From positions 8,599-72,598 of the forward strand of contig CACBNQ010000003.1 of NCBI GenBank assembly GCA_902540655.1: a stretch of DNA of 64,000 bases, in the 5' to 3' direction. The position numbers and the translations under genes are program-made. Positions 17,044 through 49,264 of the stretch are shown here, one piece after another. Positions within the stretch are counted from its first letter, which is position 1. Each line of letters begins with the position of its first letter. Below the pieces are notes generated by a model. It made no database searches. It was given only the letters and a program-made list of their open reading frames with translations, and was not told where the DNA came from. The stretch comes from an uncultured Alphaproteobacteria bacterium. Lineage in GTDB: Bacteria > Pseudomonadota > Alphaproteobacteria > Rhodobacterales > Rhodobacteraceae.

Positions 17044-17144
17044 CTTTACTAAATAAGTTTATAATATGGACCATGTTCTTATAAATACGGACACTAAGCA
17101 AGTGTTGAGTGCAAACAATTACACAAAAAAGAGTTTAAGTGGAA

Positions 17145-23883: not shown

Positions 23884-23933
23884 GTCAATTGGATTATGTT
23901 TAAAACTTACAGTAATAACTAATCTTTCTAAAT

Positions 23934-24923: not shown

Positions 24924-26491
24924 TGAAAGCTTTTTCGAATTTACTATCGGATCTTATTTTGACGAGCTCGAGAAACAGAAAACTATCACTATTAGAACAG
25001 TATTTTAGCTCAACACCTGACCCCGACCGAGGGTATGCTTTGGCAGCACTTACTGGCTCACTTAACTTTAAAAACATAAAATCTTCATTCTTTAAAGATT
25101 TAATCAAAGAAAAGCAAGACGAACACTTATTTGACCTATCTTACGACTATGTAGGTGATTTAGCTGAAACTATATCTTTGTTATGGGACCAAGAAAAAGG
25201 TGGCAATATGCCGAAACTTTCTTCTTTATTCGAAAACTTAAAAAAGGCTAAAACTAATGAGCTGAAGAACCATATAATTAATATTCTAAACATCAGTACG
25301 GCTGATCAGAGATGGGCTTTTATTAAACTTTTTACAGGAGGCTTGCGCATTGGAGTATCAAGCAGGCTCGTAAAGCAAGCACTAGCAAATTATGGCAACG
25401 TTGATCTTGAAGAAATTGAAAAGATTTGGCATGGTTTACGCCTTCCTTACATTAATTTGTTTTCGTGGCTTGAGAATAAGAGTAGTAAACCGAAAATTTC
25501 AATCTATGACATTTTTCATCCAATGATGCTTGCTCATCCGCTTGTGGTGGAAAAAGATTTGGTAGCAGCAAATCCAAAAGATTTCGTTGCTGAATATAAA
25601 TGGGACGGAATTAGAGTTCAAATTGTAAGCCATGGTGAAGGATGTCGCCTTTATTCAAGGACAGGCGATGAAGTTTCTAAGTCTTTTCCAGAAATAATTA
25701 AGACAATACAAGGTAATTTTGTACTAGATGGAGAATTACTCGCTGGAATTAACAATAATCCAAAAACATTTAACGATCTTCAGCAAAGGCTAAACAAAAA
25801 AGCTCCCTCAGAAAAGTTTATAGAAAAAAATCCATGTTTTATAAAGGTATATGATGTTTTGTTTTTCAACGGCAATGATTTAAGAGATAAAACGCTTATT
25901 GAAAGGAAAAAAGTTCTGAATTCGTATTTTAGTACAAATAGATCCCCAATGTTTTTATCGGAAACAATTGAGTTTAAAGACTGGAGATTTTTAGACAAAA
26001 TAAGAGATATTTCCAACAAGCAAATACATGAAGGTGTAATGATCAAATCAGTTTTCAGTCCTTATATTGCCGGGAGACCACGCGGCAAATGGTTTAAATG
26101 GAAAAGAAACCCAAAGAATGTAGATGCGATAATTATGTATGCACAAAGAGGACATGGAAAGCGGAGTTCTTTTTACTCAGACTATACTTTTGGTGTCTTT
26201 AACAAAGAAAAGGAACTTGTTCCTATAGGCAAGGCATATTCCGGATTTACCGATGAAGAGTTAAATAGATTAGATAAATTTGTAAGATCAAAAACTATAA
26301 ACCGGTTTGGACCTGTTAGAGAGGTTGAAAAAACATTGGTCGTAGAGATTGCATTTGATGAAATGTCTTTGAGTAATAGACATAAGTCGGGAATTGCTTT
26401 ACGGTTTCCTAGGTTCAAAAGAATTAGATGGGATAAGCCAACTAATGAAGTAGAAACATTGGACCAAATTAGAAAAAATTTTTTGGAATAA
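24923..26491 (+). CDS. ATP-dependent DNA ligase
   Basis: Motif I EYKWDGIRVQ (KxDG adenylation lysine). DGELL, EGVMIK and WFKWK motifs of the nucleotidyltransferase/OB domains. Confidence 0.9.
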   Translation: MKAFSNLLSDLILTSSRNRKLSLLEQYFSSTPDPDRGYALAALTGSLNFKNIKSSFFKDLIKEKQDEHLFDLSYDYVGDLAETISLLWDQEKGGNMPKLSSLFENLKKAKTNELKNHIINILNISTADQRWAFIKLFTGGLRIGVSSRLVKQALANYGNVDLEEIEKIWHGLRLPYINLFSWLENKSSKPKISIYDIFHPMMLAHPLVVEKDLVAANPKDFVAEYKWDGIRVQIVSHGEGCRLYSRTGDEVSKSFPEIIKTIQGNFVLDGELLAGINNNPKTFNDLQQRLNKKAPSEKFIEKNPCFIKVYDVLFFNGNDLRDKTLIERKKVLNSYFSTNRSPMFLSETIEFKDWRFLDKIRDISNKQIHEGVMIKSVFSPYIAGRPRGKWFKWKRNPKNVDAIIMYAQRGHGKRSSFYSDYTFGVFNKEKELVPIGKAYSGFTDEELNRLDKFVRSKTINRFGPVREVEKTLVVEIAFDEMSLSNRHKSGIALRFPRFKRIRWDKPTNEVETLDQIRKNFLE

Positions 26492-27808
26492 TTAAGTGCC
26501 AGGGATCCAGTTGGTTCCGGCTAATGGCACTCCAGCCATTGCAGCCGACTCCACTGTTAAAGCGCATAAATCTTCTGGTTCTAAGTTTCTAAGATCATTT
26601 TTACCACAAGCTCTTGCAATGGTTTGTGCTTCCATAGTCATTACATTAAGGTAATTTGCCAACCGCCTCCCCCCTAGCTTAGGGTCCAAACGCTTAGACA
26701 GTTTTTTATCTTGAGTAGTTATTCCTGCAGGATCGAGACCTTCGTGCCAATCATCAAACGAACCAGCTTTTGTACCTAATTTTTCATAATCTTTCTGATA
26801 CCTAGGATCATTGTCTCCAAGTGCAATCAAAGCAGCAGACCCAATCGATACTGCATCAGCACCTAAAGCCAATGCTTTTGCTACATCAGCACCATTCCTT
26901 ATTCCTCCTGAAATAATGAGCTGTACCTTTCTATGCAAGCCTAATTCCTGCAATGCTCTTACCGCGGGCCTTACACACGCCAGCGTGGGCATACCTACAT
27001 TTTCGATAAATACCTCTTGAGTCGCTGCTGTACCTCCTTGCATTCCGTCGACAACCACGACATCGGCACCAGATTTGGCAGCTAGAGCAACATCATAATA
27101 TGGTCTGGAACCAGCAACTTTTACAAAAATAGGAACCTTCCATCCAGTAATTTCTCTCAACTCTAGTATCTTGATCTCCATATCGTCTGGCCCTGTCCAA
27201 TCAGGATGCCTACATGGTGATCTTTGATCAATTCCTTTTGGCAGCGTTCGCATCTCCGCAACTCTATCATTTATCTTTTGACCAAGTAACATTCCTCCAC
27301 CACCTGGCTTTGCACCCTGACCCACAACGATTTCGATTGCATCAGCCTTTCTAAGGTCATCAGGGTTCATTCCATATCTAGAGGGAAGAAGTTGATAAAC
27401 TAACTGCTTTGAGTGACCTCTTTCCTCTTTTGTCATTCCTCCATCACCTGTTGTTGTTGACGTTCCAACCAAACTAGCACCTCTTCCTAAAGCCTCTTTT
27501 GCTTGTGCGGATAGCGCTCCGAAGCTCATTCCTGCTATAGTAATTGGAATTTCAAGATTAAGAGGATTAGAACTAAATCGGTCACCCAGGATCACTTTTG
27601 TATTGCAAGATTCTCTGTAGCCCTCCAAAGGATACCTAGAAATTGAAGCTCCAAGAAATAATAAATCATCAAAGTTTGGTAAATTTCTTTTAGATCCCCC
27701 TCCCCTTATGTCATATATACCAGTCTCAGCTGCTCTTCTAATTTCAGAGTTTGTATATGCATCGAAAGTATGCGAAGTTCTTGGTTCTGTTATTGATTTC
27801 TTTTTCAC
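26492..27808 (-). CDS. FMN-binding glutamate synthase family protein (GltB central-domain homologue; GlxD/MgsC-like)
   Basis: VGQGAKPGGGG, ISGGIRNGADVAKALALGADAV and an FMN/Fe-S-domain-like TIM-barrel sequence. Confidence 0.85.
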   Translation of the reverse strand: MKKKSITEPRTSHTFDAYTNSEIRRAAETGIYDIRGGGSKRNLPNFDDLLFLGASISRYPLEGYRESCNTKVILGDRFSSNPLNLEIPITIAGMSFGALSAQAKEALGRGASLVGTSTTTGDGGMTKEERGHSKQLVYQLLPSRYGMNPDDLRKADAIEIVVGQGAKPGGGGMLLGQKINDRVAEMRTLPKGIDQRSPCRHPDWTGPDDMEIKILELREITGWKVPIFVKVAGSRPYYDVALAAKSGADVVVVDGMQGGTAATQEVFIENVGMPTLACVRPAVRALQELGLHRKVQLIISGGIRNGADVAKALALGADAVSIGSAALIALGDNDPRYQKDYEKLGTKAGSFDDWHEGLDPAGITTQDKKLSKRLDPKLGGRRLANYLNVMTMEAQTIARACGKNDLRNLEPEDLCALTVESAAMAGVPLAGTNWIPGT

Positions 27809-27817
27809 GTAATTTTC

Positions 27818-28495
27818 CTAATATATTTTAGCATTATCTACATTAAAGTTATAAAGTGAACGAGCAGAGCCAAACCGCCTAAAGGTATCTGGATTATAAT
27901 CAGAAACATTAGCATTTGATAAAATATTTTCTAAATTACTAAGATGCTTTTTTGTCATTTTTTTCTCAATACAATCTGCACCTAAAGAGGCAACTTCACC
28001 GGCGACATATATATTTGCTTCGTATATGCTATCCCCTAAAGCATGTCCAGCATTACCGAAAATAACCAAATTCCCCTTCTGTGCCATGAAGGCAGACATG
28101 TGGCCAACATTTCCCTTCACAATGATGTCTACACCCTTCATTGAAATACCACATCTTGAAGATGCATTTCCTTCGACTAAGATACTTCCTCCATGTCCCG
28201 AAGCTCCTGCATATTGACTTACATCACCGGTAACATGAATGTTACCTGACATCATATTTTCGCCTAACCCTGGGCCAGCTGATCCTTCAACTTTGATATC
28301 AGATAATTTATTCATTCCTGCAAAGTAATATCCAACACTACCAACAACTTTCACAGTAATCTGTTTATTAATACCAACAGCTAACGCGTGGCTTCCTTTT
28401 GGATTTCTAATAGAAAAAAAGCTATTTTTATCAGATCCTTGCAAAGTCTTATTAATGTCTCTCAAGGACAATTTATTAAAATCAAGAATATTCAT
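27818..28495 (-). CDS. GXGXG-motif protein (GltB C-terminal domain homologue; GlxC/MgsB-like)
   Basis: Repeated beta-helix G-x-G-x-G strings (VKVVGSVGYYFAGM, IKVEGSAGPGLGENM, IHVTGDV, ILVEGNA, IIVKGNVGH). ATG 28495 is preferred over the track TTG at 28510. Confidence 0.85.
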   Translation of the reverse strand: MNILDFNKLSLRDINKTLQGSDKNSFFSIRNPKGSHALAVGINKQITVKVVGSVGYYFAGMNKLSDIKVEGSAGPGLGENMMSGNIHVTGDVSQYAGASGHGGSILVEGNASSRCGISMKGVDIIVKGNVGHMSAFMAQKGNLVIFGNAGHALGDSIYEANIYVAGEVASLGADCIEKKMTKKHLSNLENILSNANVSDYNPDTFRRFGSARSLYNFNVDNAKIY

Positions 28496-28497
28496 TT

Positions 28498-29394
28498 TTA
28501 ATGTCCCCAAAAATAAACAGTGGCGGGCTCTGGCTCCCAGACCTTAGCCTTTTCTATTTTTGGTAAAGAGGTTAAGGCTCTATACTCGGACCCAAAAGCT
28601 ACATAATCAGGGGTCTCTGCAAGTACAGCGGGCTTGCAGGCGATCGGATCTCTTAGAACGCCAAAACCGTTTTCCGTACCAACAACGAACGTATAAAAAC
28701 CATCAAGCTCTACAAGTGCGCTTTCCAAAGCTTCTTTAAGCGTTTTTCCACTATTCATTCTGTAAGTAATAAAGCTGGCAGCTACCTCAGAGTCATTTTC
28801 TGTTTCAAAAGTCATCTCTTTTCTCATTAATTCTCTTCGAAGAGAGTTATGATTTGATAGCGACCCATTATGCACCAAACATTGATCTTCACCCGTGGAG
28901 AATGGATGTGCACCAAGTGTTGTAACTTCAGATTCTGTTGCCATACGGGTATGCCCAATACCGTGGGAACCCTTCATTTTAGCTATATCAAATCTTTTTA
29001 CTACTTCAGCAGGCCTGCCTACCTCTTTATAAATTTCCATTTTTTTACCGACACTTAATATTCTCAAATTGGGGAAGGTGTCATTTATTAGATTGATAAC
29101 CTTATCTTTTTGCTTCACGTCAAGCTTTATGACTGCATGTGTGGAATGAGTTTCAAAACTGAATGATATTTCTTTCTTAGTCGATAAAAACTTTTTTAGC
29201 TTTTGAAAATCATCCTCGGGGGACTGAGACTGAACCATTATTTTAGCTCTCTTTGCAATTGGCTTCCCAAAAATCGCTAATCCAGCACTATCGGGACCTC
29301 TATCGCTCATACTTTCAAGCATTTTTGATAGATGAAGTCCTAGATTTGCAGATATATTCTTTTTTTTTGCGTATAGACCAACTATCCCACACAT
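28498..29394 (-). CDS. Class II (Ntn) glutamine amidotransferase-like protein (GltB N-terminal domain homologue; GlxB/MgsA-like)
   Basis: N-terminal MCGIVGL with the catalytic Cys2. HTRMATES and HNGSLSNH blocks. Confidence 0.85.
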   Translation of the reverse strand: MCGIVGLYAKKKNISANLGLHLSKMLESMSDRGPDSAGLAIFGKPIAKRAKIMVQSQSPEDDFQKLKKFLSTKKEISFSFETHSTHAVIKLDVKQKDKVINLINDTFPNLRILSVGKKMEIYKEVGRPAEVVKRFDIAKMKGSHGIGHTRMATESEVTTLGAHPFSTGEDQCLVHNGSLSNHNSLRRELMRKEMTFETENDSEVAASFITYRMNSGKTLKEALESALVELDGFYTFVVGTENGFGVLRDPIACKPAVLAETPDYVAFGSEYRALTSLPKIEKAKVWEPEPATVYFWGH

Positions 29395-30058: not shown

Positions 30059-31087
30059 TCACATTTTTGACGTTTTCTTGTTTTCGGCCATTACACATAT
30101 CATCTCAAACATTATAGCCATAGCTGTATGTGCTGTTATATTATTTGGACTATCTTTTGTTGGCATCATACAAACAATGTCTCCACCAATGACATTCATG
30201 CCTCGTGTGAGCCTTACTAAACTTATTGCTTCATCTATATCGAAGCCTTTAGAGCTTGCTTCCAAATTTGCAACAGCAGGTGCTATTGTTGGATCAAGGC
30301 AATCAAGATCAAACGTAATATATACAGGTCTTCCATCGAGTATTTGTTTTGCTTGAGCGATTACAGATTCAAGACCCCTCTCCCTAAATTCTTTCATTGT
30401 GACAACGTTGTATCCGTACTCATAACTTGGTTCCAGCCAGTCTAATGTACGTGGGTGTCCTCTTAGACCAATTTGCATAGATGATTTGGGATCAACATTA
30501 CCCTGATCAGCAAGGTAAGCGCCCCAATGCGCGGCAGACTTCTTTGAACCTAAAAAATGATCGACTTTCGTAAAAACATCGGTATGCGCATCTAGATGCA
30601 GCAAACTAACAGGCCTCCCATCCGAAATTTTGCCATTTCCAAGAGCTTGGATTATCCCTCCAGTTATGGAATGGTCACCCCCAATAGAGATAGGTTTAGA
30701 GTTGGCATTATCTATTGTTTTAAAAAAATTAGTGATTTGCACTATACAATCTTCGTTATCGTTTGCCTTTGGGAAAGGTACGTCACCCGCATCAATAATT
30801 TTTGCAACATCCCAAGGATTTATTCCAAAATCTAAATGTGCTCGTCGACCAATTGCTGAGATATTCCTAAGCGCCCTTGGCCCCAAATGTTGGTCTCTTT
30901 CGGTTGTCCCATTTCCTGTGGAATGCGGAACGCCCACCAATGAAATATCGCTTCCTAAAACTTTTTCCTGAGGACATCTGAAGAGAGTGGGCACACCCCA
31001 CCAGTATAAGTTTTCCATCATTGAGTTATCGTGTTCTAGTGCCATCTGAAACTCCTCAATATAAAATTCTTTCGATTTTTTGACCAA
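30059..31087 (-). CDS. Ureohydrolase family protein (agmatinase/guanidino-acid hydrolase)
   Basis: Arginase-fold metal motifs GGDHSITGG, LDAHTD and FDLDCLDP. Confidence 0.85.
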   Translation of the reverse strand: MVKKSKEFYIEEFQMALEHDNSMMENLYWWGVPTLFRCPQEKVLGSDISLVGVPHSTGNGTTERDQHLGPRALRNISAIGRRAHLDFGINPWDVAKIIDAGDVPFPKANDNEDCIVQITNFFKTIDNANSKPISIGGDHSITGGIIQALGNGKISDGRPVSLLHLDAHTDVFTKVDHFLGSKKSAAHWGAYLADQGNVDPKSSMQIGLRGHPRTLDWLEPSYEYGYNVVTMKEFRERGLESVIAQAKQILDGRPVYITFDLDCLDPTIAPAVANLEASSKGFDIDEAISLVRLTRGMNVIGGDIVCMMPTKDSPNNITAHTAMAIMFEMICVMAENKKTSKM

Positions 31088-31139: not shown

Positions 31140-32012
31140 ATGAGATGTAATATGAGAACAATTATACTTGCTATTTTTTCTTTTTTCGTAGTGACTGGCT
31201 ACGCGTTTTCTGATCAAATTCCTTTAAAGTATCAAGGATATTGGTCTGGTAAATCTTGTAAGTTTTCAATAGAGCAATATGCTTTATTTATTGGAACCAA
31301 TGGTTATATTTATGAAGATGACTCTCAGGTTGAATTTAATTTTGTGTTTCCTAAAAATGTAGAAAATTGGACAGCATTTCAAACAAGCGATAACAATCCA
31401 AATTTTAACTATTTTTATCAATTAGATAGGGGACAACTAGTAGAAAGATATCCTCCAGAAAACTGGGATGGGTCTGATTACAGTTTTCTGAAAAACCAGC
31501 AAACGCAAGACACAATATATTATAAATGCGATAGTAATGATCCGTTGATAGAGAGCAAATATGGAGAATTACTTAGCTTGCTAAACAGCTCAGTAGTACA
31601 GTCATGTAGAAACCCTGAGCAAGACAAATGTCTTCAAGATTTATTTAAATTTTTAGATGTAAACAAAGACAAGAGACTTCACCGAGCTGAATTAAATAGA
31701 GGGCTACGTTCCCTAAGCTTGGTTTCAGTTCTTTTTGGCCAAAATACAAATGATGACTTAGATAAGACCACCACCTTTGGAGTGTATGTTGCAATTGTAC
31801 CTTTTTTGCCTCTGATTACCCAAACGTTAATGGCTAATATTGATTATGATGGATCTAATAGTCTTTCAATTGATGAAATATCACAGGATCGAAATGACTT
31901 GTTTTCAGCAATCGTATCTGCAAAAGATGGGGTTATTGAAGATATAAGGTCGCTTCCTGGTGTGCTTCAAAATTTTGCGCCATTGTTACAAGGCTTAGGT
32001 AATTTTAACTAA
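31140..32012 (+). CDS. Exported hypothetical protein with EF-hand-like calcium-binding loops
   Basis: Signal peptide (ILAIFSFFVVTGYAFS). DVNKDKRLHRAEL and DYDGSNSLSIDEI match the DxDxDG-type EF-hand loop pattern. Confidence 0.55.
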   Translation: MRCNMRTIILAIFSFFVVTGYAFSDQIPLKYQGYWSGKSCKFSIEQYALFIGTNGYIYEDDSQVEFNFVFPKNVENWTAFQTSDNNPNFNYFYQLDRGQLVERYPPENWDGSDYSFLKNQQTQDTIYYKCDSNDPLIESKYGELLSLLNSSVVQSCRNPEQDKCLQDLFKFLDVNKDKRLHRAELNRGLRSLSLVSVLFGQNTNDDLDKTTTFGVYVAIVPFLPLITQTLMANIDYDGSNSLSIDEISQDRNDLFSAIVSAKDGVIEDIRSLPGVLQNFAPLLQGLGNFN

Positions 32013-32017
32013 CACAA

Positions 32018-32632
32018 TTAATCATTATCTATATTGCCAGCCCCTGCTCCCGTTGTTCGAGATAGTTCGCTTTCGGGGACCAGCATATTAGATGCTAGAT
32101 TAGAAAGTTCTTTGAATACATTATCATCTAACAACATTCTTGAGCGTTTAGCTAATGGATTGTTCAGTTCACGATTGTTTAAGCGTATCTCTATATCCTT
32201 GCTACGTCTGTAGTTGTCGTTTTCCCAATTAAGTTGATCATTAAAAAGTGCAGCACATATTTCTTCATTTTTATGGAAACTAAAACTAAAACCACAATAG
32301 TTAGATGCTAGTCCAACCAAAAGCATCGAAGAGTCAATATTTTTCAATATCACACTTTTACAAGCCTCTGAAACAAGCAAATCAATTGCGCTAAGACCTT
32401 CGAAAATTGCTCGTGAATTGCTAAAAATAAGACTTACGCCGTTCTTTTGAGGTGATACGGGTGGGTGCCGTTCACATTTTAGGGAATATAAAAGTTCTTT
32501 GCCACCGGGCAAAGAACGTGACTCTAGAAAGGTAACACCAAACGATAAATCTTCACAGACGCCAGCAGGAAGGTTACTACCCATACTTGCGTTAAATACT
32601 AAGTCTTTAAGCTCCGAAAAAGAAAGATCCAT
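32018..32632 (-). CDS. Hypothetical protein (204 aa), translationally coupled to the upstream 565-aa protein
   Basis: ATG 32632 overlaps the upstream TAA by 1 nt (TAATG). No motif that I can assign. Last gene of the minus-strand operon. Confidence 0.6.
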   Translation of the reverse strand: MDLSFSELKDLVFNASMGSNLPAGVCEDLSFGVTFLESRSLPGGKELLYSLKCERHPPVSPQKNGVSLIFSNSRAIFEGLSAIDLLVSEACKSVILKNIDSSMLLVGLASNYCGFSFSFHKNEEICAALFNDQLNWENDNYRRSKDIEIRLNNRELNNPLAKRSRMLLDDNVFKELSNLASNMLVPESELSRTTGAGAGNIDND

Positions 32633-34329
32633 TAGGAGTATTCAAGTGTAGGCATCCACCAATCGTCATTTTTTTGGTCATTAAGCTCGTTTTTTAGAGG
32701 TGCTCCTTGAAATAAATTTACTCTAACCCATCTGTCTGATTTCGGATCAAATTTGGATGCGCCAAAAAAAGATAATTTACAACGTAGCATATCTATAGGT
32801 TTGCAGTGTTCATCAATTAAATTATCGTGTATTTCGGAGTAAGGAGCCCAAGCATTCGTTTGTATCCTGCGAATAATAAATCGATGTTCAGGGTGTTTCA
32901 TTAAAAATTCTGCTAAGATCATATCACCGTGGAAACTTCCAAGATCGGCATGCAAAAAATACACCCTCCTGGCAATATCTAAAGGCCTTTCTAAATCCTG
33001 CCCTTCCTCTTCATACCTGTTTCCCAATCTTGGCTCCAGCTTTTCTTGTGAAACGTACCAAAATCTTGATTGATTTTCTTTCAAAGAAAAATCTATTTTC
33101 AAAGCCCAAGAGAAGTTCTTTTTTATTAAATTAGCTAACTCATGCACTCTCATTTTAGGGTAGAGCATAGGCAATTTGGTGCTCTCTAAACATAGATCAA
33201 GCCCGTCAATCAGATCTCCACCAACTTCCAAAAACAATGAAACGATAAGCTCTTGGCATTCTGTCGAATAATTTTTTGAAATATTAAAAATATTCTTTAA
33301 AGAATTGATTTTTAACAATTTTTCTAAGGTAAATTCATTTATTATTGATGCCCACTCAGCTTTTAAAACATCAATTCTTTTCTTCTGTCTATCATCGTCA
33401 GTATTCCAAGAGTTAATAAAGACTTTAACTCTAGATGTAAGCTCAATTAATCTTTCGGCCTTTTCCTTAGAAAGCTCTGCTAAATCTACCATCCGCGACA
33501 ATGCAGTTTCACGAACTTGAAACCAATTATTCAATAAGACAGGATGTTTGACCAAAAATGGAGCCATCCCAAGCCCAGTTGCATTACCAATTCCTAGATA
33601 TCTTTGAATTTTTTTATCAAGGGGAACAAATTTTTTAGGGTTACGGGCTTTTGCAACATGATTTACTAAGTCTAGTGAAAAGCCTCTAATCAAGTACACG
33701 GTGAGCATTTCAAGCTGAAACGGTACAGAAAAGTCCGAAAGTTCACAATGATTTTTTCTATCATCAATGCCGAATTTTCCGTTTCCATACACTGCTGTGG
33801 TTCGCATTAAATATCCAATTTTATTTATCAGCTCGCTAGGAGGTTGCATGCCTTCACTTAATGACTGCGCTACCAGCTCAAACATTCTTACAGATTTATT
33901 AGCCCTACTCAGAACTAGCTCTGTATTTTTATATCTACCCGCCTCTTGAAAAGGTAACTGCGTTTTAAGCCTTTCAATATCTGAAATTGATGGAACGCCA
34001 TCAAACAGAGCAAAAGAGGTATCCCAAGCAGATGCAATAACTCTATCAGTCCTTTGTGAAGTCTCTATATGATTAGAAAATGCGATTAAAGCCAGGTTTT
34101 TACCAAAGAGGTTCAATTGATAAACCGCACTACCAAATCCGTTTTCATCCATTTTCCAACGCGAACAACTGATGCGCGTTTTTTGCTGTATCATTTTACG
34201 GATCAATATTCTTGAAAAAGACAGCCTTGATGGATGGATAGACCCCATTCTTTCCAGTTTCATAACCTCAGAAGGCTTTCTAATATTTGGCTGTGGCGCA
34301 CACAACTGTTCTTCTTTTTCTATCACCAA
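32632..34329 (-). CDS. Hypothetical protein (about 565 aa), no recognisable family
   Basis: Long uninterrupted ORF one nucleotide downstream of the M19 dipeptidase stop. Conserved-looking blocks SRANKSVRMFE and GIGNATGLGMAPFLVKHP. No TM segments, Walker motifs or Cys clusters. The start is uncertain (TTG 34329, GTG 34326 or a later ATG). Confidence 0.65.
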   Translation of the reverse strand: MVIEKEEQLCAPQPNIRKPSEVMKLERMGSIHPSRLSFSRILIRKMIQQKTRISCSRWKMDENGFGSAVYQLNLFGKNLALIAFSNHIETSQRTDRVIASAWDTSFALFDGVPSISDIERLKTQLPFQEAGRYKNTELVLSRANKSVRMFELVAQSLSEGMQPPSELINKIGYLMRTTAVYGNGKFGIDDRKNHCELSDFSVPFQLEMLTVYLIRGFSLDLVNHVAKARNPKKFVPLDKKIQRYLGIGNATGLGMAPFLVKHPVLLNNWFQVRETALSRMVDLAELSKEKAERLIELTSRVKVFINSWNTDDDRQKKRIDVLKAEWASIINEFTLEKLLKINSLKNIFNISKNYSTECQELIVSLFLEVGGDLIDGLDLCLESTKLPMLYPKMRVHELANLIKKNFSWALKIDFSLKENQSRFWYVSQEKLEPRLGNRYEEEGQDLERPLDIARRVYFLHADLGSFHGDMILAEFLMKHPEHRFIIRRIQTNAWAPYSEIHDNLIDEHCKPIDMLRCKLSFFGASKFDPKSDRWVRVNLFQGAPLKNELNDQKNDDWWMPTLEYS

Positions 34330-34330
34330 C

Positions 34331-35335
34331 TTATATCTCTTTATTAAAAGAATTTTTAAAAAACTTCATCCAGTTGAGTCCCATAATAGAATTAATTTCA
34401 TCATTATCAAATCCAATATGCTTTAATCCATCCTTAATATTGTTAAAATCTTTGTTTGATTTGAACCAATTAGGCTGAATAGGAAAGCCAGGGTTAGAAG
34501 AATCTCCTTCTCCAAAGTCTTTTGTTTTGGTCCATCTTCCATTTCTCATCCACTCCACGATACTATCAGGCTGATTTTGACAAAGATCACTTCCTATCCC
34601 AATATTTTTTGATCCAAATTTTTCTGCCGTTTTTGCGATCATTTTACAAAAATCTTTAATAGTACAATCACTTCCATTATGTAAATGGTGAGGATAAAGA
34701 GAAAATCCCAGCATACCACCATTTTTAAACATTCGATCTAGAACTTCATCTGACTTATTTCTTAAAGCAGAATGCCAGAAGGCTGGATTAGCATGAGTAA
34801 TTGCAATCGGCCGTGACGAATTATCAATTGCCTCTAAAGTTGACCGATCAGAAGAATGGCTCATGTCAACAACAATCCCAAGCCTATTCATTTCTTTAAT
34901 AACTTCTTTCCCCATTCTTGTTAAGCCAGGGTCATTCTTTTCATAACAACCTGTAGCAAGAAGCGATTGATTATTATAAGAAAGCTGCATAAATCGAACA
35001 CCAAGCTTTTGCCAAACTTCTAACAAAGAAATATCATCTTCTATTGGAGACGGGTTTTGAAAACCAAAAATAATCGCTGTTTTATTATTTTTCTTAGCAG
35101 ATAATATTTCATCATAGCTACTTGCTTGCACTATATACTCCGAATAACTATTGAAATATTCGTTCCATTTCTCAAGGTTTAAAACAGCTTCCCGAAAGTT
35201 TTCATGGTAAGCAATAGTTACGTGGACACAGTCAACTGCACCTTGTCTCATCTGCTCAAAAATTTCCTTAGACCAATTAGCATACTGCAAACAATCTACT
35301 GTAAAATTATTGCTTGTTTCCGAGTCAATAGACAA
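34331..35335 (-). CDS. Membrane (renal-type) dipeptidase family M19 protein
   Basis: Amidohydrolase-fold M19 blocks VDCVHVTI, VDMSHSSDRS, ITHANP and GIGSDL. Confidence 0.8.
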   Translation of the reverse strand: MSIDSETSNNFTVDCLQYANWSKEIFEQMRQGAVDCVHVTIAYHENFREAVLNLEKWNEYFNSYSEYIVQASSYDEILSAKKNNKTAIIFGFQNPSPIEDDISLLEVWQKLGVRFMQLSYNNQSLLATGCYEKNDPGLTRMGKEVIKEMNRLGIVVDMSHSSDRSTLEAIDNSSRPIAITHANPAFWHSALRNKSDEVLDRMFKNGGMLGFSLYPHHLHNGSDCTIKDFCKMIAKTAEKFGSKNIGIGSDLCQNQPDSIVEWMRNGRWTKTKDFGEGDSSNPGFPIQPNWFKSNKDFNNIKDGLKHIGFDNDEINSIMGLNWMKFFKNSFNKEI

Positions 35336-35359: not shown

Positions 35360-36784
35360 TTACTCCATAATAGCTTTAGTCTCTAAGAATTCTTCCAAAC
35401 CCCACTCAGCCTTCTCTCGCCCATTACCCGATTGCTTAAACCCGCCAAATGGTGCATTAGTTCCCCCGCTACCATAATTAATATGGATTTGACCTGCTCT
35501 AATTTGCCTTGCGACACTCCTTAATTTTCTGGGGTCACTACCACATACATAAGCAGAAAGGCCATAACTTGTATCATTCGCAATCTGAACCGCATTATCA
35601 ATATCTTCATATGGGATTACAGATAAGACGGGGCCGAATATTTCTTCTTGTGCAATTTCCATGGAGTTATTTACATCTCCAAAAACAGTTGGCTTAACAA
35701 AATAACCGGCATTAAGCCCTGTAGGCTTGCCTAATCCACCAGTTACTAATTGAGCACCAGCCTTAATCCCAGATTCAATTAACCTTTGTACCTTATCAAA
35801 TTGAGCTTGACTTACTAGAGGACCAATATCTGTGTCTTCTTTTGTAGGGTCACCAGTTTTCAATTTTTCTGCAACATTTTTTGCAATTTCCAAAGCTTCA
35901 TGTTGTCGATTCTTTGGCACTATCATTCGAGTTGGCGCATTACAAGACTGTCCAGTATTCTCCATTATTTTTTGTACACCAACAGTGACCGATTGTTCAA
36001 ACTTTTCATCATCAAAAATTATATTTGGTGATTTTCCTCCAAGTTCCTGACTTACTCTCTTGACCGACTTTGCTGCAGCCTGAGCAACAGCGACCCCTCC
36101 CCTCGTTGAACCAGTAAAAGACATCATGTCTACATCCTTATGGTTGGATAAGGCCTCTCCTACAACCGGACCCAAGCCATGTACCATATTAAAAACTCCT
36201 TTAGGAACTTTTGCAGTATCCATTATTTCAGCAATTATATTAGCTGATATTGGTGATATTTCGCTTGGCTTCAGAATTGCCGTACACCCTGAGGCAAGAC
36301 ACGGTCCAAGCTTCGATATAGTTTGGTTTATTGGCCAATTCCAAGGTGTGATTAGCCCGCATACTCCAATTGGCTCGTGCCTTACAGTATAGCCATTAAA
36401 AGGGTATTCAAATTTATGCTCCTCTAAAACTCTAATTGCTGTCTTTAGATGGTTCATGCCCACAGCAGCTTGTGCACTACGAGAGAGTTTAATCGGCGCT
36501 CCCATTTCTTTTGTTATAGCTTCCACAAAATCCTCAAAGCGATTTTCGAATTGGCTTCTTATTTCTTTCAACAGGTCTAAACGCTCAGCTACACTTGTCC
36601 GTGCATAGCTTGAAAACGCAGCTTTTGCAGCCTCTACTGCCTTGTCAATATCCTGCTGAGAGCCAACGTTTAGTGTCCCAATAACTGATTCATCAGATGG
36701 ATTAATAATATCAATTTTTTCATCCTTTACAGGGAAGACCCATTCGCCATTAATGTAGAATTTAGCTAATTTCATTGATTGCAC
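35360..36784 (-). CDS. NAD(P)-dependent aldehyde dehydrogenase
   Basis: ALDH motifs ITPWNWP, FTGSTRGG, ELGGKSP (catalytic Glu), GQSCNA (catalytic Cys) and EEIFGPV. Confidence 0.9.
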   Translation of the reverse strand: MQSMKLAKFYINGEWVFPVKDEKIDIINPSDESVIGTLNVGSQQDIDKAVEAAKAAFSSYARTSVAERLDLLKEIRSQFENRFEDFVEAITKEMGAPIKLSRSAQAAVGMNHLKTAIRVLEEHKFEYPFNGYTVRHEPIGVCGLITPWNWPINQTISKLGPCLASGCTAILKPSEISPISANIIAEIMDTAKVPKGVFNMVHGLGPVVGEALSNHKDVDMMSFTGSTRGGVAVAQAAAKSVKRVSQELGGKSPNIIFDDEKFEQSVTVGVQKIMENTGQSCNAPTRMIVPKNRQHEALEIAKNVAEKLKTGDPTKEDTDIGPLVSQAQFDKVQRLIESGIKAGAQLVTGGLGKPTGLNAGYFVKPTVFGDVNNSMEIAQEEIFGPVLSVIPYEDIDNAVQIANDTSYGLSAYVCGSDPRKLRSVARQIRAGQIHINYGSGGTNAPFGGFKQSGNGREKAEWGLEEFLETKAIME

Positions 36785-36792
36785 CTTTTCTG

Positions 36793-37395
36793 TTATATAC
36801 CAGCTGGATTATCAATAGATTTGCCGAAGGCTTTTAGATCTGAGTATCGATCACCTATTCTATGATGGGGCCTACCGCATGTAGCAGCTCCGAGAGCACA
36901 CACTATTTCGTCGACATCAGGCGCATCATATATGGAAAACTGAACAGTCAAATAATGTGATCGCCTTCCAGTATCATGCTTATCCATTAATGGTATTTGA
37001 ATTTGTGTATTTGCTGGACCCCTTGTGTTTGTGAAACCTAGGTAACTCTTTGCACCAACCGCTTCCCTATAAAAGTTTCCAAATTGTAAAGTATGAATAA
37101 TAGCCGAAGCATGCTCAATTTCACAACTGGTCCCAGCTAATGCTGCCTTCCCGTATGCTTCAATTTTTTCTCCACTACCAACCATTGAAATCAAACGGTC
37201 GGTCAAAGCTTTTCCCATCACAGGAGCAATTCTTTTAATTTCTGGTTGCAAGTCCTCTACAAACCCCCGACCTTTCCACGGATTAGATAATACTGCAGCA
37301 ACACCTATTATGCGAAGAATAGGATTGGCTTCTTTTCCTCCTTCACTGTATATATCTTCATCAAAGGTTACAATCTTTCTCAGTTCTTTAAGCAT
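36793..37395 (-). CDS. Amino-acid-synthesis (AA_synth/DUF1185) family protein, function unknown
   Basis: Blocks AVLSNPWKGRGFVEDL, IEAYGKAALAGTSCEIEHASAIIH and GRPHHRIGDR match my recollection of the PF06684 family pattern. Confidence 0.7.
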   Translation of the reverse strand: MLKELRKIVTFDEDIYSEGGKEANPILRIIGVAAVLSNPWKGRGFVEDLQPEIKRIAPVMGKALTDRLISMVGSGEKIEAYGKAALAGTSCEIEHASAIIHTLQFGNFYREAVGAKSYLGFTNTRGPANTQIQIPLMDKHDTGRRSHYLTVQFSIYDAPDVDEIVCALGAATCGRPHHRIGDRYSDLKAFGKSIDNPAGI

Positions 37396-37472: not shown

Positions 37473-38267
37473 TTAATGTAAATTCAATGATACAAGAAAT
37501 TCATCGATTTTTACAAAAACCTTTTTGTAGTCTTCGACCAATGCCATATGCCTCAAGTTTTGTAAAACACAGACATAGCTATTTTTAAAATTTTTTGCAA
37601 TTTCTTTTGCAGAATTAGGACCATTAGCGAAATCTTGGTCGCACGTTATTATAAGTGTTGGCTTCCTTTCATGTAGCGATTTAAGGTCAATAGATCCGTA
37701 ATATAGTATAGGGTAAACTTTTGAATAAATTTCTTTTCTATTGTTATTTACCCAGTTACGTACAAGTTGGATGATATGAGGATTACTTTTCTGAAAAGGA
37801 ATGCTAAACCATCTTTTTATCGCCGCATCGGTTGTAGACTCTGGGCCCTCGTCTTTCAACAACTTTGCTCTTTCTAAAATTTCATCCCTTTCCTGATCTA
37901 ACAATCGATTTGGTGAATTTAAAAGAACTAGTGCTTCAACTATGCTTGGGTGTAAAGACGCAAATTTTCGAGAAATCATTGATCCCAGAGAAAACCCAAT
38001 AAGTATAAATTTTTCTAATTTAATGTGATTGATTATTTGTAGCAGTTGATCTGCAAACAGGTTTAAAGAAATCTCACCTTCAGGATCTTTACTATCACCA
38101 TGACCAAGAAGATCATATATAAGTACATTATGGTTTTTAAACAATGAAACCTGCCATGACCAGACATCTTGGTTGAGTCCTAAACCATGTATAAAAACAA
38201 TAGTTTTAAACTTAGGATTCTTAAAAAAATATTTAAAGCAGTTTCCGTTAAAATATTGCCTCTTCAT
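37473..38267 (-). CDS. Alpha/beta-fold hydrolase
   Basis: FIHGLGLNQDVW oxyanion region and the nucleophile elbow GFSLGS. Confidence 0.8.
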   Translation of the reverse strand: MKRQYFNGNCFKYFFKNPKFKTIVFIHGLGLNQDVWSWQVSLFKNHNVLIYDLLGHGDSKDPEGEISLNLFADQLLQIINHIKLEKFILIGFSLGSMISRKFASLHPSIVEALVLLNSPNRLLDQERDEILERAKLLKDEGPESTTDAAIKRWFSIPFQKSNPHIIQLVRNWVNNNRKEIYSKVYPILYYGSIDLKSLHERKPTLIITCDQDFANGPNSAKEIAKNFKNSYVCVLQNLRHMALVEDYKKVFVKIDEFLVSLNLH

Positions 38268-38268
38268 T

Positions 38269-38664
38269 TCACGACTCAGGTTTATAAGCTACTACTTCTA
38301 CTTCAACTAAAACATCTACCAAAAGATCGCTGACCACGGCTGATCTAGCAGGTGGATCATGGTCAAAATACTCCCCGTAAATCGAATTAAACCCTGGGAA
38401 GTCTTCTTTATTTTTCAGCCAAACCATAGCTTTAATAACATCCTGTAACTCACATCCAGCCTCTATCAAGGTATTTTTAATTTCATCGAGCACTATTCTT
38501 GTTTGCTCTTCTATAGAACCTTCAGTTATGACCACACCGTTTTTCATAGGAACTTGACCCGTTAAATACACAAAGTCACCAGCTCTAACGGCCTTAGATA
38601 ATGACAGCTTTCGTCCATTAATAATCAATGGATCGCCAATAATTTTTTTAGACATTTTATTCAC
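38269..38664 (-). CDS. RidA/YjgF/UK114 family reactive-intermediate deaminase
   Basis: Size and blocks YLTGQVP, LIEAG and PARSAV..L.....VEVEVVA are typical of the family. Confidence 0.85.
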   Translation of the reverse strand: MNKMSKKIIGDPLIINGRKLSLSKAVRAGDFVYLTGQVPMKNGVVITEGSIEEQTRIVLDEIKNTLIEAGCELQDVIKAMVWLKNKEDFPGFNSIYGEYFDHDPPARSAVVSDLLVDVLVEVEVVAYKPES

Positions 38665-38803: not shown

Positions 38804-40285
38804 ATGGGCAGATTAGAAAACTTTAAAATGTTGATTGATGGAGAGTGGGTCTTATCCTCTGATAATAAGACCTTTGAAAGCTCAAATCCCACAACGGGAG
38901 AGAGTTGGTGCACTATACCAGAAGCATCAACAAAGGATGTTAATAGCGCAGTAGAAGCGGCTCACAAAGCATTTATTGATGGACCATGGTCAAAAATGAC
39001 TCCGACAGAAAGAGGAGAGCATCTCAGAAAATTAGCCGATATACTAGCTAGTAAATCTGAGGAATTGGGTAAAATTGAAACCATAGACACCGGGAAAATG
39101 TTAAAGGAAACTAAATGGCAGGCAAAATATATCTCACAATTTTTTAACTTCTTTGCTGGGTGCGCTGATAAAGTCTCTGGTCAAACCTTACCAATTGATA
39201 AACCAGATTTATTTGTATTTACAAACAGAGAGCCACTGGGCGTTGTAGCAGCAATTGTTCCTTGGAATTCCCAATTGTTTCTTGTTGCCGTAAAGATTGG
39301 TCCAGCATTGGCTGCGGGAAATACTATCGTTTTGAAAGCGTCCGAACACGCATCTGCAGCTATGCTTGCTTTTGGTAAATGCGTTGAAGAAGCGGGTATC
39401 CCACCTGGAGTCGTAAATATTATAACAGGCCATGGAGATCCTTGTGGAAAAGAATTAACAAGCCACCCCAAGGTCGCCAGGATTTCGTTTACTGGGGGAC
39501 CAACTTCTGCGCGTCATGTTATTAGAAATTCTGCTGAAAATTTTGCAGAAGTGTCCTTAGAGCTGGGGGGTAAGTCACCTTTTATTGTATTTGATGATGC
39601 GGATATAGAGAACGCAATTAATTGTTCTATAGCTGGAATTTTTGGCGCAACAGGTCAAAGCTGTGTAGCTGGGTCGAGATTATACCTTCAAGAAAATATA
39701 GCAGATGAATTTTTAAGCTTAATTGTTAAGCAGGCAAAAAACATAAAAATTGGAGATCCCTTATTGGACGAAACCCAAATGGGCCCTCTATGCACTAGAG
39801 GCCAACTCGAAAATATTAAAACTGAGCTTGCGTTTGCTGTTGAAGAAGGTGCAACCTTGTTGTGCGGTGGCAAATCGCCCGAAGGTCTTGGTGAATTGTT
39901 TTTCGAGCCAACAATAGTAGACTGCCCTAGTCAGAAACTAAAAATAGTAGATACTGAATTATTTGGACCTGTACTATCCGTAATAAAATTTAAAACTGAA
40001 GAAGAGGTCATATCTCTTGCTAATGATACAAAACATGGTTTGGCAGCAGGCATTTTTTCAAAAAGTAATTCTAGGTGTCTAAGAGTAAGTAAGGCAGTTC
40101 ATGCTGGAATAGTATGGGTTAACACATATAGGGTTGTGTCTCCGATTGCAGAATTTGGAGGATTTAAAAACTCAGGTTATGGTAGAGAAAGTGGTTTTCA
40201 AGCGATATATGACTACACTCGACCTAAAACGGTTTGGATGAATATGTCAGATGAACCGGCAGCTAATCCATTTGTAATGAAATAA
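38804..40285 (+). CDS. NAD(P)-dependent aldehyde dehydrogenase
   Basis: VPWNSQ, FTGGPTSA, ELGGKSP, GQSCVAGSR and ELFGPV. Confidence 0.9.
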   Translation: MGRLENFKMLIDGEWVLSSDNKTFESSNPTTGESWCTIPEASTKDVNSAVEAAHKAFIDGPWSKMTPTERGEHLRKLADILASKSEELGKIETIDTGKMLKETKWQAKYISQFFNFFAGCADKVSGQTLPIDKPDLFVFTNREPLGVVAAIVPWNSQLFLVAVKIGPALAAGNTIVLKASEHASAAMLAFGKCVEEAGIPPGVVNIITGHGDPCGKELTSHPKVARISFTGGPTSARHVIRNSAENFAEVSLELGGKSPFIVFDDADIENAINCSIAGIFGATGQSCVAGSRLYLQENIADEFLSLIVKQAKNIKIGDPLLDETQMGPLCTRGQLENIKTELAFAVEEGATLLCGGKSPEGLGELFFEPTIVDCPSQKLKIVDTELFGPVLSVIKFKTEEEVISLANDTKHGLAAGIFSKSNSRCLRVSKAVHAGIVWVNTYRVVSPIAEFGGFKNSGYGRESGFQAIYDYTRPKTVWMNMSDEPAANPFVMK

Positions 40286-40317
40286 AGGATAAAGGATTTT
40301 TTAGGGGGATAAAGTAT

Positions 40318-41355
40318 ATGAAATTTGATTTAGCAATAAATCTAGAAAGAGCAGACAACTCTTTATCAATGAAGGACGTGAAAAACCATACACTAGAGAT
40401 GGTACAAATGGCTGATCAGAGTGGTTTTAATATTATATGGGCTGCCGAACACCACGCCTTGGAAATGACAATTGCACCAAACCCTTTTCAAATAATTACA
40501 TGGTGGGCAGAAAATACAAACGATGTAAGGCTCGGTACCGCTGTAGCAGCAGCTCCGTACTGGCATCCAATCAAACTTGCTGGAGAGGCTGCTTTCACCG
40601 ACCTAATTACTGAGGGTCGCCTTGAATTTGGTATAGGTTCGGGGGCATACCAACGAGAATTTGATCGAATGCACCCAGGACTAAAGCAATCTGATGCATG
40701 GAAATATATGCAGGAGAGTCTTCCAGTTATCAAGAAGCTATGGGAAGGAGATTATGAGCATAATGGTGAATTTTGGTCTTTCCCATTATCTACGTCTGTT
40801 CCAAAACCTGTGCAAAAAGGTGGTCCCCCTGTATGGGTCGCTGCTAGAGCACCTATAACCTATGACTATGCAGTAAAAAATCATTGCAACATAATGTCTT
40901 GGCCTCTAACTAGACCATTTTCAGAAGCAGAGCTCTATAAACAACGCCTTGATGATGCTTTAGAAAGTGCCTCTAATGGCTTCAAACCTATTTTTGCGAT
41001 GATGAGGCATGCTGCTGTCTATAAAAACAAGGAAGAATCGAGTATCTATGTCAGAGCAATTCAACGTATATTAGGCCAATTTGAAAATTTGTTTAAAAAT
41101 TTAGGTGACGTTAAAGACGGATTTCCCAAGGAAATTGCTTTGAAAGAACTAGAAAATAGGGAAGAATATAATCCAACTATGCTTGAAGAAAATCTACTGT
41201 TTGGAACACCAGACGAGGTTATTAAAAAATTAAAGCGTTATGAAGATCTCGGGGTGGATAATTTTATCTATTACGCATCGATGGGGTTGGATCATGGTTC
41301 ACAGAAGAGATCACTAGAGTTGTTCTGTGAAGAAGTCCTTCCTGCTTTTCAATAG
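40318..41355 (+). CDS. LLM-class (luciferase-like) flavin-dependent oxidoreductase
   Basis: TIM-barrel LLM pattern: AAEHHAL, RLGTAV, GRLEFGIGSG, and a C-terminal GVDNFI... Confidence 0.75.
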   Translation: MKFDLAINLERADNSLSMKDVKNHTLEMVQMADQSGFNIIWAAEHHALEMTIAPNPFQIITWWAENTNDVRLGTAVAAAPYWHPIKLAGEAAFTDLITEGRLEFGIGSGAYQREFDRMHPGLKQSDAWKYMQESLPVIKKLWEGDYEHNGEFWSFPLSTSVPKPVQKGGPPVWVAARAPITYDYAVKNHCNIMSWPLTRPFSEAELYKQRLDDALESASNGFKPIFAMMRHAAVYKNKEESSIYVRAIQRILGQFENLFKNLGDVKDGFPKEIALKELENREEYNPTMLEENLLFGTPDEVIKKLKRYEDLGVDNFIYYASMGLDHGSQKRSLELFCEEVLPAFQ

Positions 41356-41364
41356 GAATAAAAA

Positions 41365-42168: not shown

Positions 42169-42169
42169 C

Positions 42170-43120: not shown

Positions 43121-43127
43121 GGTTAGC

Positions 43128-44015: not shown

Positions 44016-44030
44016 TTATTGAGATAAACA

Positions 44031-49191: not shown

Positions 49192-49213
49192 GAGGTACCC
49201 TTATCAAAAAATT

Positions 49214-49248
49214 AAAAAAAAAGTCGCCTCAGTTACCCGAGGCGACTT
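49214..49248 (-). terminator. Strong intrinsic terminator/attenuator hairpin between proX and proW
   Basis: Minus strand: AAGUCGCCUC-GGGUAACU-GAGGCGACUU, a perfect 10-bp stem followed by a U run (UUUUUUUAAUUUUUU). Located 17 nt after the proX stop and about 25 nt before the proW ATG. Confidence 0.8.
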
Positions 49249-49264
49249 GAATAAACATATATTT

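Follow-up and report, generated by a model that had tools for sequence, protein, structure and literature searches.

A conserved cassette of an M19-fold protein, a large protein of no recognised family and a DUF3726 protein, with a putative role in the catabolism of betaine-type nitrogen compounds

What is the function of two overlapping genes that close an operon of an uncultured Alphaproteobacteria bacterium and whose products had been assigned to no family? These genes lie in a stretch of 64,000 nucleotides (assembly GCA_902540655.1, contig CACBNQ010000003.1, positions 8,599 to 72,598 of the forward strand), which is called the window as a whole and gives the coordinates of all window features below. 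The first gene encodes a protein of 565 aa, here named X (32632..34329, minus strand), and the second a protein of 204 aa (32018..32632, minus strand). A previous reading made from the letters of the window alone (the sequence-only reading) had suggested that they form a heteromeric enzyme and that, given the neighbouring dipeptidase, aldehyde dehydrogenase (ALDH) and RidA, it may catalyse the committed, chemically unusual step on a nitrogen-containing substrate. Our best overall explanation, to which we give about even weight, is a three-protein catabolic module without a classical cofactor motif, acting on an imported betaine-type nitrogen compound. Its members would be X, the small protein, which carries a DUF3726 domain, and a protein of the Peptidase_M19 fold encoded directly upstream of X.

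X, its small partner and the three-gene core

X begins with a TTG codon at 34329, followed by GTG; between it and the TAA stop of the M19-fold gene (34333-34331, minus strand) lies only base 34330. Its own TAA stop (32634-32632) has one A in common with the ATG start of the small open reading frame (ORF; 32632-32630), giving TAATG at 32634-32630. Direct reading of the sequence therefore bears out both ORFs with their reported motifs, as well as the TAATG overlap between them and the single nucleotide that separates X from the M19 gene; the blocks LSRANKSVRMFE, GIGNATGLGMAPFLVKHP and the C-terminal TTGAGAGNIDND were verified in the translations. Neither protein is the product of a chance ORF, because both have many relatives in the databases: more than 8000 for X at E<=1e-3 (90%-cluster level) and 141 for the small protein by word search.

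Pairing was counted in 79 loci with a called X gene, and neighbouring genes were counted in 84 or 87 loci. In 71 of the 79 loci X is directly followed, in the same orientation, by a DUF3726 ORF, and the X stop overlaps the DUF3726 start in every locus with independent gene calls. Moreover, X and DUF3726 occur as single polypeptides of about 760-820 aa in Burkholderiales and in at least one sequence labelled Paracoccaceae. Since the two genes adjoin in about 90% of the loci and are fused in Burkholderiales, X and DUF3726 are almost certainly two parts of one complex and thus a physical and functional unit, in agreement with the sequence-only reading. That reading had named two outcomes that would speak against it, namely loss of synteny in other genomes and membership of both proteins in well-characterised families. 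Synteny is kept in the 71 loci given above, and the second outcome was not observed either (see below).

The conservation extends to the M19-like gene, which is present in 75 of the 87 loci and lies directly upstream of X in about 70 of them. Between its product and the window protein, identity is 47-70% in records labelled from Acidimicrobiales to Proteobacteria and 95% in one closely related genome, so that this partner is at least as conserved as X. Fusions of the M19-like protein with X were absent from the best 150 representatives. A paralogous family with the same trio in permuted order is found on the pSymB replicon of S. meliloti (locus L089; strain 1021, 395419-398865), where the genes are arranged as IclR - X' - small partner - M19' - PotD-like ATP-binding cassette (ABC) transporter - omega-aminotransferase - succinate-semialdehyde dehydrogenase (SSADH)-like ALDH - RidA. 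In this locus X' has 578 aa and is 29% identical to X (E 3e-73), and the small partner has 242 aa and lacks the GAGAG tail described below; the whole cassette is kept at >=90% identity across Sinorhizobium pSymB replicons. We are thus highly confident that X and DUF3726 form a heteromer and that the M19-like, X and DUF3726 genes constitute a three-gene core.

X belongs to a large family. A profile search of 1.84 billion representatives gave 1726 clusters (50% identity) at E<=1e-3, and at least 589 X stretches were matched among 185,579 species-representative genomes (one genome per species). The records that bear X are labelled as Rhodobacterales, Hyphomicrobiales, SAR116/Puniceispirillales, Gammaproteobacteria and Acidimicrobiales, together with one 'Deltaproteobacteria' metagenome-assembled genome. 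Identity reaches 95% in close relatives and is about 52% in other orders and classes; among the matches listed, the genome closest to the window X is the single-amplified genome (SAG) AG-422-M03, with 91%. A look-up of the exact X sequence of the window gave no public contig.

No family of Pfam-A or NCBIfam matched X at E<=0.01. When the searches were extended to 10 homologues and fusions, the X part again matched no family, and the DUF3726 matches and one faint Ldh_2 match were confined to the C-terminal extension. Searches of the PDB sequences with phmmer and with a 49-sequence profile gave no match at E<=10, and the PADLOC defence-protein models were matched at noise level only (E 4e-4 and 1.5e-3, 16-19 bits). 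The AlphaFold2 model of X (predicted local distance difference test, pLDDT, 86.5; predicted template-modelling score, pTM, 0.89) consists of an N-terminal mixed alpha/beta part, a long helical middle and a C-terminal alpha/beta part. The Foldseek comparison of this model, which had been proposed by the sequence-only reading, found no neighbour in the PDB (best E 0.93, template-modelling score, TM, <=0.11) or in BFVD (best E 0.47). The absence of a recognisable family for X, as first perceived from the sequence, is therefore borne out by the empty Pfam, NCBIfam, PDB sequence, PDB profile and Foldseek searches. On the strength of these sequence and model comparisons, we rate the X family as categorically new at the protein level among the families tested (Pfam, NCBIfam, PDB and BFVD).

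A kinase-like fold, which besides a significant structural match would call for a conserved Lys/Glu pair and a catalytic-loop Asp/Asn, was considered for X and rejected. Many weak Foldseek matches to kinases were obtained, all with E>1, a probability <=0.06 and TM <=0.11, and X has no family-wide invariant Lys.

In an alignment that reaches down to 25% identity, about 50 positions of X are invariant. They include eleven Arg, four Asn, three Tyr, Ser37, Ser146, Asp103, Glu274 and Glu360, and no Cys, His or Lys is found among them. The lack of these three residues is evidence against metal clusters, a pyridoxal-phosphate Schiff base and a Walker-type site, and the earlier impression that X carries no cofactor motif holds. 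As judged from the alignment, the invariant set fits a site for anionic groups. We also observed a divergent branch of the X family (P0323, P0358, P0369 and P0381) in which X is fused to a degenerate Ldh_2-like domain of about 300 aa. These whole proteins have 840-940 aa and end in a different conserved tail, ...LVPD.EE..LRPGE.IDPLKIF.

In the small protein, a DUF3726 domain at the N-terminus and a conserved tail enclose a variable region. The sequence-only reading had recognised no family for it either; this is not borne out, since residues 3-55 pass the cutoff of Pfam DUF3726 (PF12525) with 25.7 bits against 22.1 (E 1.1e-5), and the scores of orthologues and fusions reach 68.6 bits. Its orthologues are mutually only about 25% identical, and two elements are kept. 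The first is an N-terminal helical motif (S-x-N-E...KAA-x-G-x-G-x-P-x-G-x-AED). The second is the nearly invariant extreme C-terminus, TYVP-x-SE-x-SR-x-x-GAGAG-x-x-DND, which reads SRTTGAGAGNIDND in the window; of 73 orthologues, 61 have the full tail motif and 69 have GAGAG.

Several observations relate DUF3726 to the Ldh_2 oxidoreductases. A natural X::DUF3726 fusion was modelled with AlphaFold (pLDDT 84, pTM 0.87), and the top 8 Foldseek matches of the fused homologue in the PDB are all Ldh_2 enzymes (1VBI, 1NXU, 1XRH, 1Z2I, 4FJS, 1X0A, 1S20 and a second 1XRH chain; probability 0.77-0.98). The match of the small subunit is partial and covers about 180-250 aligned columns of about 340. With hhalign, DUF3726 aligns to the true Ldh_2 genes that adjoin some cassettes with E 7.8e-5 over the N-terminal helices, and one divergent fusion has a faint Pfam Ldh_2 match; the small protein of the window has no match to Pfam Ldh_2 (PF02615). 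In the hhalign alignment the catalytic Ser-His-Gly segment of true Ldh_2 enzymes ('DG..SHGL') falls in a gap of DUF3726, and the Ldh_2-like domain is thus most likely non-catalytic. From these sequence and model comparisons, DUF3726 is best described as a truncated, catalytically degenerate version of the predicted Ldh_2-like fold with a nearly invariant acidic tail. The small subunit therefore resembles the type-2 malate/lactate dehydrogenases, YiaK, AllD, ComC and DpkA in its predicted fold. However, it differs from them in its length (about 200 aa versus about 335), in the deletion of the Ser-His-Gly segment, in having its own invariant C-terminal tail and in being always beside or fused to X.

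An invariant extreme C-terminus on an otherwise fast-evolving small protein recalls a LysW-like carrier. In such a scheme X would ligate the amine of the substrate to the C-terminal Asp carboxylates of the small protein, the ALDH would oxidise the tethered substrate and the M19-like amidohydrolase would release it. Analogues are LysK of the LysW pathway and, in the Puu pathway, the use of gamma-glutamylation; both a peptidase-fold partner and an ALDH are present in the operon. However, no conserved Lys and no signature of nucleotide binding, ATP-grasp included, is found in X, and the terminal residue is neither strictly terminal nor invariant, as the fusions P0248 and P0246 end in DDSV and RDQD. 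Moreover, the carrier would be fused to X in many genomes and the context is catabolic, not biosynthetic, and we consider this scheme extremely improbable.

Two-subunit catabolic enzymes encoded by overlapping genes are known from osmolyte and amine pathways, the SuyAB sulfolactate sulfo-lyase being one example. The cassette shares with SuyAB-type enzymes the translational coupling of a large and a small subunit gene, as well as an operon setting that includes a regulator, a transporter and, downstream, dehydrogenase genes. In contrast, X has no sequence or structural similarity to them (Foldseek found none in the PDB).

The M19-fold partner

The third core component (34331..35335, minus strand) had been called an M19 dipeptidase. 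It matches Pfam Peptidase_M19 (PF01244) nearly over its full length (E 8.9e-74, 248.9 bits), and its best match in the PDB, also over the full length, is 2I5G, an uncharacterised 'amidohydrolase' (E 3.5e-57). Like the canonical M19 dipeptidases (DPEP1, Sco3058 and GliJ), it belongs to this Pfam family, has the TIM-barrel amidohydrolase fold and keeps the two beta-site His and the Asp of GxGxD. The retained motifs are DxSH, THAN and GxGxD (GIGSD in the window). Unlike them, the HxD motif is replaced by D-C-L-Q-Y (DxLQ), the bridging Glu by Gln (GxEG to GFQN) and the His152 motif by LSYNN, with Tyr. This degenerate pattern is common to 54 partner sequences, to the dgc-type and S. meliloti-type proteins and to 2I5G. 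As HxD, the bridging Glu and His152 are replaced in all cassette-linked members, a binuclear-zinc dipeptidase mechanism is unlikely, and the designation as a canonical dipeptidase does not stand.

The 2I5G entry is presumably from P. aeruginosa. From this source organism and the matching length (325 aa), we infer that 2I5G is PA5396. The dimethylglycine operon PA5396-PA5397-dgcA-dgcB begins with PA5396 (PMC13492115; for Vibrio natriegens, PMC12093977), and in the literature searched, PA5396 and PA5397 are mentioned only as uncharacterised members of this operon. The dgc operon of Pseudomonas, Vibrio and Paraburkholderia is comparable to the cassette in two respects: it has an M19 protein of the same clade, in which HxD, the bridging Glu and His152 have likewise been lost, and its M19-fold gene adjoins the gene of a small protein inside a methylated-amine/betaine catabolic locus. 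However, the small partner there is a DUF5943 protein of about 177 aa without the GAGAG..DND tail, no X homologue is present, and the Paraburkholderia M19 protein is only about 33% identical to that of the window. On a Paraburkholderia plasmid (L088, 6983-8627), the first two genes of the dgc operon encode a PA5396-type M19-fold protein and DUF5943. The possibility that PA5397 is itself a DUF3726 protein was rejected, the Paraburkholderia equivalent being DUF5943 without an acidic tail.

The degenerate active site of the M19-fold partner leads to another view of the cassette, in which X and DUF3726 are not catalytic and constitute an obligate accessory factor (for assembly, activation, regulation or substrate delivery) of the M19-fold enzyme. 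In one version, the acidic C-terminal tail (D-x-D) enters the M19-like active site that has lost H-x-D. We regard this view as improbable. It would agree with an M19-like partner that is the most conserved of the three proteins (47-70% identity across phyla) and has specifically lost HxD and the bridging Glu, and with a small subunit in which strong conservation is limited to a flexible, Gly-rich linker with DND-COOH at its end. Moreover, AlphaFold does not place this tail onto X in the fused protein, and the dgc operon pairs the same M19 clade with another small protein, DUF5943. However, a large X with about 50 residues invariant down to 25% identity is more like an active site than like a chaperone, some loci have X and DUF3726 without an adjacent M19 gene, and no such tail is found in the partners that accompany this M19 clade in the dgc-type and S. 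meliloti-type loci.

Operon contexts and the putative substrate

In the window, the core genes are preceded by four others in the order RidA - alpha/beta hydrolase - PF06684 - ALDH - M19-like - X - DUF3726, with intergenic gaps of <=77 nt, all on the minus strand. The operon starts with a RidA-family imine/enamine deaminase (38269..38664; Pfam Ribonuc_L-PSP, E 2e-28), followed by an alpha/beta-fold hydrolase (37473..38267; Pfam Abhydrolase_1) that is weakly PcaD/RutD-like, its NCBIfam matches to PcaD and RutD being far below cutoff. A PF06684 (AA_synth/DUF1185) protein comes next (36793..37395; Pfam E 1.2e-66); its only PDB relatives are the uncharacterised structural-genomics entries 2QTP and 3BYQ. 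The ALDH (35360..36784; Pfam Aldedh, E 6e-152) has HpaE and the betaine-aldehyde dehydrogenase (BADH) as its closest NCBIfam models, both below cutoff. Promoter and terminator scans gave chance-level results and do not define the ends of the operon.

These first four genes are specific to the lineage and common only to the locus of SAG AG-422-M03 (L005). The PF06684 gene was found beside the cassette only in L005 among 84 loci, the same holds for the alpha/beta hydrolase gene, and the window subfamily of ALDH is common to L005 and L044 only. Thus, of the partners listed by the sequence-only reading, the M19-like protein, ALDH and RidA do recur in unrelated lineages, but the core is limited to the M19-like protein, X and DUF3726, and the RidA, hydrolase, AA_synth and ALDH genes of the window are lineage-specific additions.

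In 24 of 87 loci an ALDH gene lies no more than about 6 kb from X, mostly two genes upstream of X and just before the M19 gene. The cassette-linked ALDHs fall into three subfamilies (the window type, alpha-ketoglutarate-semialdehyde-dehydrogenase-like and SSADH-like). A true Ldh_2 gene directly follows DUF3726 in 19 of 87 loci; RidA takes the same position after the cassette in the operons of Burkholderiales with a fused cassette, and it also ends the S. meliloti locus. That RidA and Ldh_2 can replace each other in this slot suggests an imine-type product.

Among transporters, betaine-type importers are those most consistently associated with the cassette. LysR regulators occur in 14 loci, and an arrangement LysR | ALDH-M19-BCCT-X-DUF3726, followed by Ldh_2 or RidA, is found on Phaeobacter plasmids, in an uncultured assembly (L091) and in Burkholderiales. 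The DUF3726 gene of the cassette is carried by 58 Phaeobacter plasmid records, and BCCT was confirmed in the one examined. ABC systems of the OpuAC type lie 2-4 genes from X in six further loci, including those of SAR116, Aminobacter and Magnetovibrio. SoxB-like genes are near the cassette in seven loci, and the Phaeobacter operon is flanked by sarcosine-oxidase-family genes and by a cluster with a dimethylglycine-dehydrogenase (DMGDH)-like flavoprotein, a Rieske oxygenase and its reductase. The window, too, speaks for a betaine context, as the cassette has an operon of carnitine/crotonobetaine-like character, an OpuAC transporter and an mgsABC-like trio as neighbours (see below). The surrounding logic of transporter, regulator and dehydrogenases is ordinary catabolic-operon architecture.

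In our preferred reading, the M19-like protein, X and DUF3726 would act as one catabolic enzyme system without classical cofactor motifs. The substrate would be a small zwitterion that contains nitrogen and belongs to the betaine/osmolyte class, entering the cell via BCCT or OpuAC-type transporters. X may offer an Arg-rich site for an anionic (carboxylate-type) group and the degenerate Ldh_2 domain a pocket for a 2-substituted acid, and the M19-fold partner may carry out a hydrolytic C-N step. The products would be an aldehyde and a 2-imino or 2-oxo acid. The aldehyde could then be taken over by the lineage-specific aldehyde dehydrogenases, while the imino acid would be hydrolysed by RidA, or the product reduced by a true Ldh_2 oxidoreductase. 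From the gene contexts, a catalytic role of the module in catabolism is probable. A substrate of the betaine class is quite possible, with doubt slightly prevailing.

We further considered that X/DUF3726 and the degenerate M19 protein form a new enzyme class with a new fold, catalysing a missing step in the catabolism of an abundant betaine-type osmolyte, and that the tail of the small subunit completes the active site in trans. This more specific proposal seems to us rather unlikely. The step could be the cleavage of a C-N bond or the hydrolytic opening of a ring, in a compound such as homarine, trigonelline, a betaine of the proline type or an intermediate derived from carnitine. In the papers covered by full-text searches, DUF3726 and DUF5943 are not mentioned and neither X nor the cassette is described.

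A number of observations weigh against a betaine-degrading enzyme system. The M19-fold partner is without most of the canonical catalytic metal ligands and may not be a hydrolase, and a few roseobacter loci have no adjacent M19 gene. In the small subunit the catalytic Ldh_2 motif is missing, and the invariant tail has low confidence in the AlphaFold model of the fusion. The cassette-linked ALDHs come from three unrelated subfamilies. Other contexts are sugar/sulfosugar-like, polyamine-like (in S. meliloti) or peptide-like (with an Opp transporter), and the M24 or amidase genes found beside some cassettes make up a context that does not fit betaines. Because of these mixed ALDH subfamilies and varied contexts, a single 'betaine' substrate is not established. 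Finally, several bare cassettes lie among unrelated genes, without a transporter, regulator or ALDH, and a housekeeping or repair role fits these as well as catabolism does.

Such a role would consist of the repair or detoxification of a nitrogen compound that arises spontaneously or as a side product (a lactam, an imine adduct or an unusual dipeptide). It is suggested by the bare three-gene cassettes of several genomes, by the very strong conservation in diverse genomes, streamlined marine ones included, and by variable neighbours that involve different ALDH subfamilies and pathways. The association with RidA, a known damage-control enzyme, also agrees with it. However, the cassette is repeatedly found inside LysR-controlled operons with dedicated importers and on catabolic plasmids and islands, and its distribution is patchy (589 or more stretches in 185,579 genomes, one per species), and we give a housekeeping function only a small chance of being correct.

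The sugar/sulfosugar-like context is represented by the L012 group (6-8 roseobacter loci; L012, 330-13618). Upstream of the cassette, these loci encode a PfkB kinase, a tagatose-bisphosphate-type aldolase, an SftI-like isomerase, a GFO/IDH/MocA oxidoreductase, an aldose 1-epimerase and an SSADH-like ALDH, and downstream of it a HisD/HpsN-like dehydrogenase. This layout is reminiscent of the sulfoquinovose and 2,3-dihydroxypropane-1-sulfonate (DHPS) pathways. The module might therefore act on a C3 organosulfonate (sulfolactate, sulfopyruvate or cysteate) and might be, for instance, a desulfonating lyase of a new kind, with the ComC-like degenerate Ldh_2 domain binding a 2-hydroxy or 2-oxo sulfonate. 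The position of the cassette between the SSADH-like ALDH and the HisD/HpsN-like dehydrogenase, preceded by the kinase, aldolase, isomerase and epimerase, would agree with this, as would the cassette-linked Ldh_2 genes, which score best against L-sulfolactate dehydrogenase. The many invariant Arg of X would suit the binding of a sulfonate together with a carboxylate, and RidA would fit an aminoacrylate of the cysteate-lyase type. However, the NCBIfam matches to sulfonate enzymes are all far below cutoffs, and no xsc, suyAB, cuyA or sulfite-handling genes were found in the scanned ORFs of the window or in the gene-called loci. Moreover, the dominant transporter association is with betaine-type systems and the L012 arrangement may be mere lineage synteny, which leaves the sulfonate proposal with a very slim chance.

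Two other links to known pathways were rejected. The genes upstream of the cassette in Sneathiella are those of the beta-hydroxyaspartate cycle, where BhcB exceeds its equivalog cutoff and BhcC narrowly misses its own; they form an unrelated neighbouring operon. A Rut/Tgn-like N-heterocycle pathway for the window operon, made up of RidA, the alpha/beta hydrolase, ALDHs and an LLM protein, is a weak analogy only, since the LLM protein has no RutA-type match and the RutC and RutD matches are far below cutoff.

The surroundings of the cassette and its significance

Several other gene groups were observed in the window. A carnitine/gamma-butyrobetaine-like operon (38804-47260, plus strand) diverges from the cassette operon and is followed by an OpuAC-type ABC transporter (47265-50269, minus strand). 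It encodes a BADH-like ALDH, an LLM oxidoreductase, a crotonobetainyl-CoA-hydratase-like ECH protein, an L-carnitine-dehydrogenase-like 3HCDH protein, a BKACE protein, an acyl-CoA dehydrogenase and an ADP-forming acyl-CoA synthetase. All NCBIfam matches of this operon are below the equivalog cutoffs, so that its true substrate may be a carnitine analogue.

On the other side, a gene on the opposite strand (31140-32012, plus strand) separates the cassette from a ureohydrolase gene; it encodes a protein of 290 aa with an N-terminal hydrophobic segment (a possible signal peptide) and EF-hand motifs. The ureohydrolase, of the arginase/agmatinase family, lies just past the cassette (30059-31087, minus strand), and arginase-family genes are also near the cassette in L006 and L091. 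Further downstream is a trio of split glutamate-synthase-like genes (26492-29394, minus strand), with a class-II glutamine amidotransferase (GATase), a GXGXG and an FMN-binding Glu_synthase domain, that is similar to the N-methylglutamate synthase mgsABC; the scanned ORFs next to it included neither gmaS nor mgdABCD.

A DNA-repair-type cluster occupies 20841-26491 and comprises a metallophosphoesterase, an Lhr-like helicase (DEAD, WH_Lhr and DEAD_assoc), a nuclease of the MBL/RMMBL fold and an ATP-dependent DNA ligase. A protein of 558 aa (19145-20821, plus strand) has a weak match to linalool dehydratase/isomerase (Ldi; E 2.7e-14). Four paralogous proteins with adenylate/guanylate cyclase domains are encoded within 13 kb (5826-8902, plus strand, and 15760-19046, minus strand), a seemingly high count.

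Betaine-type osmolytes such as glycine betaine, carnitine, homarine, trigonelline and the proline betaines are among the chief currencies in which labile carbon and nitrogen are exchanged between phytoplankton and bacteria. For several of them, we know of no bacterial catabolic genes that have been described. Against this background, the cassette is likely to point to an enzyme of the marine nitrogen and carbon cycles that has yet to be discovered. It represents an abundant and conserved family tied to a small partner, to an odd amidohydrolase-fold protein, to betaine importers and to methylated-amine islands, in groups as different as the roseobacters, SAR116, Rhizobiales, Burkholderiales, Gammaproteobacteria and marine Acidimicrobiales. 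The presence of the cassette on a 262-kb plasmid of Phaeobacter inhibens, and of a paralogue on pSymB of S. meliloti, offers a genetically tractable handle on its function. Its study could lead to a new enzyme fold and to the role of the PA5396-type proteins in the dgc operon of Pseudomonas, and could give a functional annotation to thousands of 'hypothetical' genes in ocean metagenomes.

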